From a virus (Duplodnaviria; Caudoviricetes), in IMG/VR virus record IMGVR_UViG_2871003000_000003, positions 64,001 through 128,000 of that record: a DNA stretch of 64,000 bases; one strand, given 5' to 3'. This document shows, piece by piece, positions 21,760-44,459 of the stretch (position 1 is the first letter of the stretch; each line of letters starts with the position of its first letter). The translations under genes and the position numbers were made by a program. The notes beneath the pieces are model-generated. The model ran no database searches. It was not told the DNA's origin and was given only the letters and a program-made list of their open reading frames with translations.

Positions 21760-21884
21760 ATAAAAAACATAGATATTTTTGGCTGGGCGGTGTATCCAGC
21801 ATCTCAGGTACTCTTTTCAGAGTGTGTCGGGAACCTTTTCCGACCTCAAAAACATCTATGTTACTACCAATTATATCAGTTTGT
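21760..21884 (-). ncRNA. candidate stand-alone structured sRNA downstream of the PBECR nuclease gene
   Basis: Own promoter TTGACA(21919-21914)-17-TATATT; 16-bp closing stem 21766-21781/21847-21862; three inner hairpins; terminal U-tract. Confidence 0.6.
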
Positions 21885-37898: not shown

Positions 37899-38169
37899 TG
37901 TTTATGCACAAAAATTGCCGAATTATTTTGTCAAAAGTTACTAAACCCCTTGTAAATAGTGGGTTTTCAAGAAATCAACTTCGTCCGTAATATGGAAGGA
38001 TGAGAGTTTTGCTTATATTCAAAATTCTTGAGATGAAATCAAGACTCTTAAGACGACAAACGCTATTGCCAAAGCGTTTAATAAATATGGAGATATATCT
38101 ATAATAAAGCCCCTATTGAAAGGGGCTTGGGCTTTGCCCAATATAAGCACTTGCTTATAAATACAAATA

Positions 38170-38715
38170 ACTCAGTGCAGATTGGCTTGTCACCATGCTG
38201 AGAATATATGAATAGTGAGTTGCGGTATAATACGATAGTTTTATACTGCAGCTTCTGGAATGATGTGAATCATAAACAGAAAGACGGAAACCGTCAAAAC
38301 TAAATATATGTACAATAATATATTGCCGTAAAACGCAATTGCCAGATCGCTGACATAATAGACGACTCCAGTGGAGTAATAATCGTGATGCCTGTATCGG
38401 TGGAATGTTACAGAGAGATAAGTAGCGAAAATCCAAATAAGTCAGTTGCGTCGTTGATCGGAAGAAATTCCAGTATAAGATCTGTCGAATGTACGAGTAG
38501 CCCAAAGTGACGTGAGATTAATACATAAAGAACAAAAAAATTAAATCTTATTATGAATTTTCTTAATACGCTGAATGACATGGGTGAAAGTTTCTCGTAA
38601 TCAGTCGAGGCTACAATTGCTGTTTATCAGATGTAAAGGAAGTCTAAGGGTAGCTCCCTTATTCTCAGCCCTTTACAAGTAGTGGCGGAATATTATGACG
38701 ATATATTTGAGTAGG
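38170..38715 (+). ncRNA. large structured ncRNA candidate (ROOL/GOLLD-class by size and context)
   Basis: About 550 nt with no plus-strand ORF; multiple stems (TGCGGTATAA/TTATACTGCA, GACGG/CCGTC, TAAGGG/CCCTTA, GTAAAGG/CCTTTAC); next to tRNAs. Confidence 0.5.
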
Positions 38716-38841
38716 AAGAAGTTCCATTTGTATTTATAATCAAGTGCTTATGCGCGCACTTGACGATTTCTAATCTCCTTTTCAGTTAGTAATAGCATTG
38801 CTGTTCTGGTAGTGCTGTTGCTAACATCTTAGGAGTATTTT

Positions 38842-38913
38842 AGCCCCATCGCCAAGCGGTAAGGCACAGGACTTTGACTCCTGCATTCAGTAGTTCGAAT
38901 CTACTTGGGGCTG
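38842..38913 (+). tRNA. tRNA-Gln(TTG)
   Basis: AGCCCCA/TGGGGCT acceptor; CAGGA-CTTTGAC-TCCTG; TTCGAAT T-loop. Confidence 0.92.
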
Positions 38914-39544: not shown

Positions 39545-40792
39545 TTGGAATGCACATTATTCCTTGATACGAATGCATTACTTAGTCTCGGCGAAAATGC
39601 ATTTAAAGAAAAATTTATTATTGCACAAAAGACACTTGAAGAGATCGAGAATATCAAAGTGTCTAATTCTAAAGATGGAGAAGTAAAATACAAAGCCAGA
39701 CAAATTTCAAGACTATTGGATAAACATGATGGCGAATATGATGTGGTTTTATACTCTCCAAAAATTAAAGAAATAATTGATAGTTATTTCTTATCTGAAA
39801 CGCCAGACAACATTATCTTGGCTTCTGCTTATTATTACAATTCAAATGTATCGGAAGTACTTGTATGTTCTGATGATTTAAATTGCAAATTCATATCTCG
39901 TAATATTTTTGGACTTCCTACAAAGGGAGTTTCGGATATTAACCTTGTCAAAAATCTTGACGAATATCTTGGATATAAAGAATTAACATTGTCTGATGAA
40001 GAAATGAGTTACTTCTATTGTCATACAAATGAAAACATTTATGATTGTATTTTGAACGAATATCTCATTATTAAAAAATCAGACGGAGAAGTTGTTGATT
40101 ATAGAAAATGGGATGGAAATGAATATAGGGCTGTATGTGAAAAAACAGTTCGCTCTACTATTTTTGGAGATAAAATTAGACCAAAAGATTCATATCAAGC
40201 CTGTGCCATTGATTCAATTTTTTCAAATACAATGACAGCTATTACCGGACATGCAGGTAGCGGAAAATCATTGATATCTTTAATATCTATGATGAGCCTT
40301 ATTGAAAATGGCGAGTATGATAGAGTGATTATTATGTTTAACCCTAATAAAGCAAAGGGTGCTGCAGATATGGGTTTCTATTGTGGTAATGCTACTGAAA
40401 AGGCACTTCAAAATTCTATAGGTTCCATGTTAACTACAAAATTTGGTGATAGATTTGCTGTTGAAATGTTGTTGCAGCAAGATAAAATTCGATTAGTATC
40501 TATGGCAGATGTACGAGGAATGGAAGTAAGGGATAATGAAATTTTATACATTAGTGAAGCGCAGAATACATCAATCGAATTATTAAAGTTGTGTTTATCA
40601 AGAGCAAGTAGCGGATGTAAAATTGTTATCGAAGGTGATTATGATAGCCAGGTTGATTCTTATTTATTTGAAGGAAATTCAAATGGTTTTAAACGCGCAA
40701 TTGATGTGCTTCAAGGTGAATCAGAATTTGGATATGTACATCTTCCGAATGTTTGGAGAAGTAAAATTGCAATGTTAGTGGATAAATTATAG
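39545..40792 (+). CDS. phoH: PIN-PhoH protein
   Basis: FLDTNAL and PDNIIL (PIN); GHAGSGKS, RG, SEAQN and EGD..Q.D (PhoH ATPase). Confidence 0.9.
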   Translation: MECTLFLDTNALLSLGENAFKEKFIIAQKTLEEIENIKVSNSKDGEVKYKARQISRLLDKHDGEYDVVLYSPKIKEIIDSYFLSETPDNIILASAYYYNSNVSEVLVCSDDLNCKFISRNIFGLPTKGVSDINLVKNLDEYLGYKELTLSDEEMSYFYCHTNENIYDCILNEYLIIKKSDGEVVDYRKWDGNEYRAVCEKTVRSTIFGDKIRPKDSYQACAIDSIFSNTMTAITGHAGSGKSLISLISMMSLIENGEYDRVIIMFNPNKAKGAADMGFYCGNATEKALQNSIGSMLTTKFGDRFAVEMLLQQDKIRLVSMADVRGMEVRDNEILYISEAQNTSIELLKLCLSRASSGCKIVIEGDYDSQVDSYLFEGNSNGFKRAIDVLQGESEFGYVHLPNVWRSKIAMLVDKL

Positions 40793-42795: not shown

Positions 42796-42939
42796 ATGGA
42801 ATATAAAGACGGATTACCAGTATTAAACTTTGAAGAACTGGTTTCTTATATCATGGAGGAAAGTCAATATCCCAAAACAGATATTGAGAGAATTCTGGAT
42901 TTAGAAACAGAATATATGGAAAAAATTGGAATTATTTAG
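42796..42939 (+). CDS. small acidic protein (47 aa)
   Basis: MEYKDGLPVLNFEELVSYI...; GAGGAG RBS. Confidence 0.55.
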   Translation: MEYKDGLPVLNFEELVSYIMEESQYPKTDIERILDLETEYMEKIGII

Positions 42940-42944
42940 AAAGA

Positions 42945-43193
42945 AGGATATCGGCTATCTGAAGTGTAGAAAGAACTTTTAACGAGAGAGTTCAATCCGC
43001 GGCTCAGGATAAGCAGATTTACAGATTACCTATGTGGCAATCTACGCCAGTGCTCACGTACATGTTCCCACTTATTAAAGCGGAATCTGTCGTATGCACT
43101 AACATGTACAGGAGTTTCTATAGAATAAAAACTTGCCATACGTATCACCTGCCTTCCAAAATAAACTGCATCATCTTGGAGAACCGATATCCT
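42945..43193 (+). ncRNA. candidate 16S rRNA core-mimic RNA
   Basis: 10-bp perfect closing stem enclosing 16S h1-like, central-pseudoknot-like and anti-SD-like segments (see findings). Confidence 0.65.
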
Positions 43194-43267
43194 AGAATGT
43201 GGAGAAATCCACGAAATAAATTATAAAAATTTACAAATTAGTTGATAGAAAAGGAGACATTTTAAAA

Positions 43268-44188: not shown

Positions 44189-44215
44189 ATTTTCTGTTAT
44201 ATATGTACATTTCAA

Positions 44216-44251
44216 AGATCCGTAGGTGTCAAAACTTACGGGTCTATTTTT
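44216..44251 (+). terminator. intrinsic terminator
   Basis: AGATCCGTAGG/CTTACGGGTCT followed by a T-run. Confidence 0.7.
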
Positions 44252-44281
44252 GTGTTCTCAGTTAGGAGAATAAGAATTAGA

Positions 44282-44415
44282 AACATCAGCGAAAGGAATG
44301 TGTCGGGTAAGCTCCGACCGCGCTGCATGTTCCAATGCAACATTGGATTTTCAGGAGAGATACGGTGGATTAGCTACCTACCGGATAAGTGTAACCTCAT
44401 TCGCACTTCTCTCCT
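44282..44415 (+). ncRNA. structured intergenic RNA with 23S H70/H71-like hairpin
   Basis: Nested stems; TGTCGGGTAAGCTCCGACC at 44301-44319. Confidence 0.55.
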
Positions 44416-44459
44416 ATTTCTATGGAGTGAGGAGAAATAAAATATTTGAATAAAAGGAA

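Follow-up and report, generated by a model that had tools for sequence, protein, structure and literature searches.

Two host factors are complementary to small-subunit rRNA at its 5' end, over the strands of both helix 1 and the central pseudoknot: the eukaryotic U3 snoRNA, which works with box C/D proteins, and the helix of the rrn leader, which acts in cis. Both promote assembly. In bacteria the rrn leader helix reportedly pairs transiently with the 5' end of 16S rRNA, and for both factors this pairing would hold off the formation of helix 1 and of the pseudoknot. A second group of RNAs, SR1/SR1P, RNAIII/hld and SgrS/SgrT, comprises short structured transcripts in which a small ORF is combined with a conserved antisense element exposed in a loop; their known targets are mRNAs. 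The third group of interest here, hok/Sok, bsrG/SR4 and yonT/SR6, comprises structured prophage mRNAs of about 250–300 nt that encode peptides of fewer than 60 aa, are held together by long-range pairing between their 5' and 3' parts and have no complementarity to rRNA. Type I systems with clamped toxin mRNAs are known from SPbeta-type prophages (PMC5848175, PMC3531473).

We analysed an element located at positions 42945–43193 of a 64,000-nt stretch of phage DNA (referred to as the window), which is part of a 166-kb IMG/VR provirus record. Standard annotation leaves this region as 'intergenic'. The original prediction had read it, from strings that are indeed all present at the coordinates given, as a non-coding 'mini-16S' decoy transcribed from the plus strand, whereas the strand that is both structured and coding is the minus strand. 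What had been taken for a mini-16S RNA is the opposite strand of a small phage mRNA that folds tightly and encodes a 37-residue protein. The element forms a self-contained minus-strand gene cassette (a moron), and its clamped mRNA carries in the 3' UTR a conserved complement of the 16S 5' terminus that tracks the host.

The cassette RNA resembles U3 and the rrn leader in what it is complementary to and in the proposed effect of pairing on helix 1 and the pseudoknot. Unlike them, it is encoded by a phage, is predicted to act in trans, resides in the 3' UTR of a coding mRNA and tracks the 16S tails of its hosts. With SR1/SR1P, RNAIII/hld and SgrS/SgrT it shares the short structured transcript, the small ORF and the loop-exposed antisense element, but its complementarity is to rRNA termini. 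It is similar to hok/Sok, bsrG/SR4 and yonT/SR6 in size, in coding capacity and in its long-range 5'–3' pairing, and differs from them in its rRNA complementarity and in a peptide that is not hydrophobic. The peptide, P0001, belongs to the same family as PHROG 21154 and a small ORF of Stx phages (VT2-Sakai, between orf22 and N). These enterobacterial copies are the last genes of immunity operons, with a terminator directly after them, and have neither a clamp nor an anti-16S block. The features of the unit, listed in the direction of the mRNA, are the following:

43220..43225, minus strand: −10 box TATAAT, read directly from the sequence and kept in the homologous locus L008
43199..43212, minus strand: 5' stem-loop GUGGA-UUUCU-CCAC, directly after the −10 box
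43182..43193, minus strand: 5' arm of the closing stem (the clamp), AGGAUAUCGGUU, outermost helix of the minimum-energy fold, with full covariation between lineages
43144..43155, minus strand: split extended Shine-Dalgarno site AAGG-C-AGGUGAU, about 4 nt (4–5) upstream of the ATG
43026..43139, minus strand: coding sequence, stop included, of the basic 37-aa peptide P0001, a conserved ORF of PHROG 21154
42974..43014, minus strand: 3'-UTR block, complement of the host 16S 5' tail and of about nt 1–30, reading on the plus strand AACTTTTAAC followed by GAGAG..CTCAGGATAAGC
42978..42989, minus strand: apical loop UCUCUCGUUAAA on the stem GAACU/AGUUC, taken from the fold, complement of the 16S 5' tail and first bases
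42945..42956, minus strand: 3' arm of the closing stem, AGCCGAUAUCCU, then UUCUUUCU, from the minimum-energy fold and the cross-lineage clamp test
42939..43212, no strand assigned: extent of the inserted module, roughly 275 nt, that L002 and L007, the closest relatives, lack

The two strands of the element differ strongly in their capacity to fold. The minus-strand RNA folds at −97.4 kcal/mol (z −7.35 to −9.3 against shuffled controls), compared with −67.8 kcal/mol for the plus strand (z −3.44 to −3.5). Under DNA parameters, which do not allow G-T pairs, the energies of the two strands are close; the asymmetry is therefore due to G-U pairs and points to an RNA made from the minus strand. The minus strand also folds better in L008, a homolog of 72% identity. 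Relatives were retrieved through the protein only, which gave 65 loci that were collapsed to 33 lineages; the mRNA sense is the better fold in 32 of these 33 and has the advantage in all seven lineages analysed with shuffle controls. Rfam, named in the original prediction as a check, holds no relevant family for the element: there was no match at the gathering score and, at E up to 10, only chance-level snoRNA and lncRNA rows appeared. The phage nucleotide collection likewise contained no nucleotide match to the element. Loci L025-27, L029, L031 and L034-55, which came from pattern scans of genomes and viruses and were mostly chance matches, were dropped after alignment.

On the minus strand the promoter of the window has no recognisable −35 box, and a scan of the window found no full sigma-70 site on this strand. 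Full consensus promoters lie on the mRNA strand in L024 (TTGTAA-17-TATAAT with TG) and in L063 (TTGCAA-16-TATAAT). The hairpin that follows the −10 box may serve as the protective start of an mRNA of about 250 nt, and 5' hairpins of other sequence precede the closing arm in L008, L061, L063, L066 and L067. The one in L063 (L063:2403-2429) also scores as an intrinsic terminator for the opposite strand and could block antisense read-through into the cassette.

The closing duplex that had been proposed for 42945–54/43184–93 is real. It reaches 12 bp with one G-U pair, is the outermost helix of the minimum-energy structure and covaries in relatives, where clamp helices of 8–16 Watson-Crick bp occupy the same position in unrelated sequences (Fisher combined p 6e-9). 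The test counted Watson-Crick pairs only; it replaced single-lineage tests allowing G-U pairs because these are weak in AT-rich sequence. Across five SPbeta-like lineages the 5' arm lies at −54 to −61 relative to the ATG, and the 3' arm at +69 to +83 past the stop codon. The 3' arm is missing in the class formed by L024, L028 and L030, in which homology breaks at 42980. The arm was lost in this class through a recombination break at that position, and a search for a substitute 3' arm in L024 and L030 found none. In L061 a terminator is located just after the clamp and is separate from the hairpin formed by the block.

Between the clamp arms lies a gene. The Shine-Dalgarno site of the minus-strand ORF reads AAGGCAGGUGAU ahead of the ATG, and within the family the duplex between this site and the anti-SD averages −16.1 kcal/mol, compared with −9.1 kcal/mol for 70 ordinary ORFs of the window (p 1e-12). 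The plus-strand string ATCACCTGCCTT, previously taken for the anti-SD-like tail of a 16S mimic, is the reverse complement of this site, and it is explained as the complement of a real Shine-Dalgarno sequence because that sequence sits ahead of the ATG of a 37-codon ORF. Other parts of the proposed 16S-like architecture also turn out to be coding sequence. The segment said to form a covarying h2 pseudoknot falls in codons 18–21 of the gene (the R-F-R codons), and its pairing, judged by eye from the sequences rather than computed, survives in L008 only in a shifted register and appears to be absent in L061, L063 and L067. The h28-like stem CGTATG/CATACG overlaps the start codon and codons 15–17, and the scaffold stem GTACATGTT/AACATGTAC encodes the VHV and EHV of the peptide and is not complementary in L008. 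Comparison with L008 shows codon-level selection on the reading frame of P0001. The two copies have equal length and the same stop position, their 37 differences are distributed as 10/6/21 by codon position, 15 of the codon changes are synonymous and 11 non-synonymous, and the other frames are closed.

P0001 matches PHROG 21154, a phage family of unknown function, at E 7.6e-7 over residues 1–35 of 37, and the L008 ortholog matches it at 3.6e-7. Among 1.8 billion representatives phmmer identified 21 family members of 35–49 aa, and these relatives share the motif V-H-V..A-Y.R-F-R..K-W-E-H-V..H-W-R. The top phmmer match, P0005, is a low-complexity tandem-repeat protein and was rejected as spurious. 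The peptide is basic and aromatic, has no hydrophobic segment and is predicted to be soluble; AlphaFold2 models it as a four-strand beta meander with core pLDDT of 93–96. Searches for a Pfam match, a PDB sequence match, a structural neighbour or a named Atlas cluster of P0001 returned none.

Homologs detected by tblastn in Stx and lambdoid phages, those of E. coli included, extend the family beyond the Lachnospiraceae phages, the Stx-phage ORF being 59% identical over residues 11–37. The enterobacterial homolog has 40–41 aa and lies between orf22 and N (L069:2459-2584 in VT2-Sakai; L070:1962-2087 in Salmonella phage Oslo). It closes the cI immunity operon as the final gene, occupies the position of rexAB and is followed by a terminator. 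Many Stx phage records leave it unannotated; the orf22 of Stx phages has no Pfam domain. The peptide thus belongs to a widespread micro-protein family of unknown function that is common to gut Lachnospiraceae phages and E. coli Stx phages and that, in the latter, sits in an operon expressed in lysogens. In two unrelated lineages NYN-domain (RNase-like) genes adjoin the small gene (L072:2440-3054 and L073:1044-1670); such neighbours occur in these two lineages only, and none was found in SPbeta-like or lambdoid contexts.

As far as the link to 16S rRNA is concerned, the window copy alone proves little and the family settles the question. The two checks of this similarity that had been suggested, a BLASTN search and a comparison with shuffled sequences, diverge on the window copy: the plus strand aligns with the real host 16S at a local score of 28 and so beats the shuffles (19.5 ± 2), whereas in a window-wide blastn against host rRNA the 16S-5' match ranks about 13th with E=10. 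In the family, the block is present in 18 of the 33 protein-selected lineages (z 4–11.6); taken over these 18, the complement of its consensus agrees with the 5' end of host 16S in 28 of 29 positions. The resemblance to this end that was noted in the original prediction is thereby borne out, but not the mimicry, since the strand that functions carries the block in antisense to 16S. The broader idea of a relation to 16S termini that is under selection emerges stronger than it was first put, through the identity of the consensus and through host tracking. While the clamp keeps its structure as its sequence changes, the block keeps its sequence, and it is therefore under sequence-specific constraint.

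Near the 3' end of the mRNA the block folds as the 5' half of a hairpin that is weak and bulged. Its ACUCUC core has an unpaired probability of 0.5–1.0 in 17 of the 18 lineages, and the loop in the window displays this core together with the complement of the 5' tail. Seven of the first eight lineages reach −36 to −48 kcal/mol for the duplex predicted with the first 50 nt of a 16S query that starts 8 nt upstream of AGAGTTTGAT; L057, which is N-masked, gives −26 kcal/mol. Compared with shuffles the duplex reaches z −4 to −8 in seven of the eight, and six of the eight have no better site anywhere in 16S than this one at the 5' end. L058, L065, L072-74, the paralogs L128-135 and the E. coli phage homologs lack the block, and the peptide therefore works without it.

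Over the 18 lineages the substitutions in the block relative to 16S comprise 25 G>A, 12 T>C, 4 C>T, no A>G and 14 transversions, counts that are not independent because the lineages are related; a column-level Fisher test of the asymmetry gives p 0.11. This spectrum fits pairing by the mRNA strand, as the common changes leave G-U wobble pairs. In a sense-strand mimic, helix 1 would equally survive the changes that fall in its region.

Among the rrn operons of Lachnospiraceae the bases directly before GAGAG vary, and 5 of the 18 phage lineages match particular host tail variants over 5–8 nt (P about 1e-4 compared with control 14-mers). From its loop, the window predicted a host tail ending in TTAAC. 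None of the first 11 genomes with a match had this variant, but 21 of 401 Lachnospiraceae genomes proved to carry it, with several occurrences in the multi-copy assemblies. With the TTAAC hosts the window shares an uninterrupted match of 10 nt ahead of GAGAG, and L099 one of 12 nt. On the Shine-Dalgarno side the complementarity ends at about the mature 3' end of 16S; L079 compared with its own host is alone in hinting at more.

The closest relatives of the window, L002 and L007, have HU genes that are 99–100% identical and an integrase that is 99% identical to those of the window, and the small unit is missing from them. The gap between orf47 and HU measures 46 nt in these two and 328 nt in the window. 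The cassette is inserted between the yonJ-like phosphoesterase/orf47 and the HU gene in an SPbeta-like phage of Lachnospiraceae. In the window the flanking genes are on the plus strand, opposite to the cassette, and in distant members the small gene is again opposite in strand to the YonJ-like, HU, YonG-like and YonO-like (RdRP) genes. The unit is a mobile cassette of SPbeta-like phages. One copy, that of L008/L033, is located in Mediterraneibacter hominis NSJ-55, and the hosts are therefore Lachnospiraceae. The phage of the window has a single copy. Contigs of L004, L005, L006, L010 and L024 (L130-L133, L125, L128-L129) carry a paralog of the small gene about 40–50 kb away; these phages have no cassette at the yonJ-HU locus, the paralogs have no anti-16S block, and some phages hold two copies.

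Taken as a whole, these data are, in our judgement and with moderate confidence, best explained by a mobile cassette whose dual-function mRNA would both encode the peptide and pair with immature 16S rRNA. The 5' end of 16S is buried in the mature 30S subunit, and only nascent or immature rRNA could therefore be the target. In such a mechanism the loop would make the first contact, with the free 5' tail of 16S that is still nascent or immature. The duplex would then zip up over about 35–45 nt, displacing the weak cis partner of the block and competing with helix 1 and, in the central pseudoknot, with the 5' strand. By binding pre-30S particles in this way the RNA would slow or mark their maturation, while the Shine-Dalgarno site would hold the 16S 3' end, and the peptide might be made at, or act on, the same pre-30S particle. 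Candidate effects on the cell include modulation of growth, exclusion of other phages and sensing of ribosome synthesis.

A wider interpretation is possible, and we put it forward tentatively. SPbeta-like gut phages may employ a trans-acting RNA that binds the nascent 16S 5' terminus, evolves with the tail of each host and has a role in controlling or sensing 30S biogenesis, with a micro-protein directed at the ribosome encoded in the same transcript; by the same interpretation, and by analogy, this RNA could be regarded as a bacterial-virus counterpart of the U3 snoRNA or of the rrn leader. No phage RNA aimed at an rRNA terminus was found described in the literature, and no precedent was found. 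If the pairing is real, this would be, to our knowledge, the first natural antisense RNA against a bacterial rRNA terminus, and it would represent a new route for a temperate phage into host ribosome assembly. The 12-nt loop and the 40-nt block, with their predictable compensatory partners, provide a testable handle, and the block could serve the study of early folding of the 16S 5' end in Firmicutes.

Among the alternatives to pairing with immature 16S, the one that fares best, although we consider it unlikely, is that capture or gene conversion of the rrn leader/16S junction left the block behind as a by-product, which was then kept as a stabilising or terminating 3' hairpin that does not pair with rRNA. 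Such an origin is consistent with the matches that run into host-specific leader bases in several lineages, as conversion by multicopy rrn would give, with the constant position of the block as one half of a hairpin near the 3' end and with the functioning of the peptide family without the block elsewhere. A structural hairpin, however, should drift like the clamp, whereas here the 16S-complementary half holds 28 of 29 positions and its cis partner is degenerate and bulged. The changes that are tolerated are the wobble-compatible ones. Moreover, the hairpins are weak, at −9 to −18 kcal/mol, and rich in A and U, most of them have no U tract after them, and in L061 the terminator is a separate structure.

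We regard as improbable the decoy of the original prediction, in which a plus-strand transcript, arising for example by read-through from yonJ/orf47 into HU, would form a mini pre-16S with a processing-stalk-like stem, a 5'-end mimic including leader bases and an anti-SD-like 3' end, and this RNA would divert maturation factors or rRNA-directed nucleases. The plus strand does contain 16S-sense sequence, with 10 host-specific tail/leader bases, the closing stem is possible on either strand, and the flanking genes lie on the plus strand; with G19 and G20 changed to A and C21 to T, a sense RNA would retain helix 1, and a conserved, sense-oriented hairpin resembling helix 71 of 23S is located 1.1 kb away. 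Against this stand the poorer fold of the plus strand (z −3.5 versus −9.3, and worse in 32 of 33 lineages) and an interior that is a real minus-strand gene, whose Shine-Dalgarno site accounts for the 'anti-SD' string. The sequences behind segment 2, h2 and the h28-like stem are coding and, by eye, are not conserved as 16S-like. The 12 T>C changes compared with no A>G also speak against a sense RNA, as do the place and orientation of the block, which stay fixed in the 3' UTR of the small gene also in cases such as L061, whose upstream neighbour shares the strand of that gene.

A self-regulated module of the type I toxin–antitoxin kind, with the mRNA held inert by the clamp until processed (as in the hok fold-back), control by an antisense transcript and a 16S likeness of no relevance, would agree with the highly structured mRNA of about 250 nt, its 5'–3' clamp and small ORF, with an orientation opposite to the flanking genes that builds in antisense transcription, with the E. 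coli phage homolog in a lysogen-expressed immunity operon and with the type I systems known from SPbeta-type prophages (PMC5848175, PMC3531473), but it is very doubtful in view of a basic, aromatic peptide with no hydrophobic segment and a predicted soluble beta meander, of a promoter scan that found no conserved promoter for a discrete antisense RNA (plus-strand promoter-like sites are weak, 9-of-12, and at background frequency) and of the host-tracking 16S complementarity that it leaves unexplained.

The hairpin resembling 23S rRNA lies on the plus strand at 44300–44322, within the intergenic region 44189–44459 upstream of the integrase gene, and matches helix 71 of the host 23S at 18 of 19 positions. 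Its core, GTCGGGTAAGTTCCGAC, matches 23S at 17 of 17 positions in L003-L006, L024 and L028. As in 23S, the hairpin has AGCGAAA as its flank, but in place of the TTCCT tract of 23S stands the complement of that tract. For this hairpin it is the plus strand that folds better (z −3.9 versus −2.6). It is the top rRNA match of the window-wide scan, yet its E value is 0.24, and it has no match in Rfam.

No rRNA-related enzyme was found among the larger ORFs of the window. A PIN_4 and PhoH-like fusion protein of 415 aa is encoded upstream of the yonJ-like gene (39545–40792, plus strand), and at the L066 locus a beta-CASP/RMMBL (RNase J-like) gene and ClpP are found near the cassette. The window also contains several structured RNAs that score at or above the Rfam gathering thresholds: a ROOL RNA at 38147–38744 on the plus strand (340.9 bits), a skipping-rope RNA at 21774–21854 on the minus strand (76.6 bits) and four tRNAs at 38842, 39195, 45971 and 47081.
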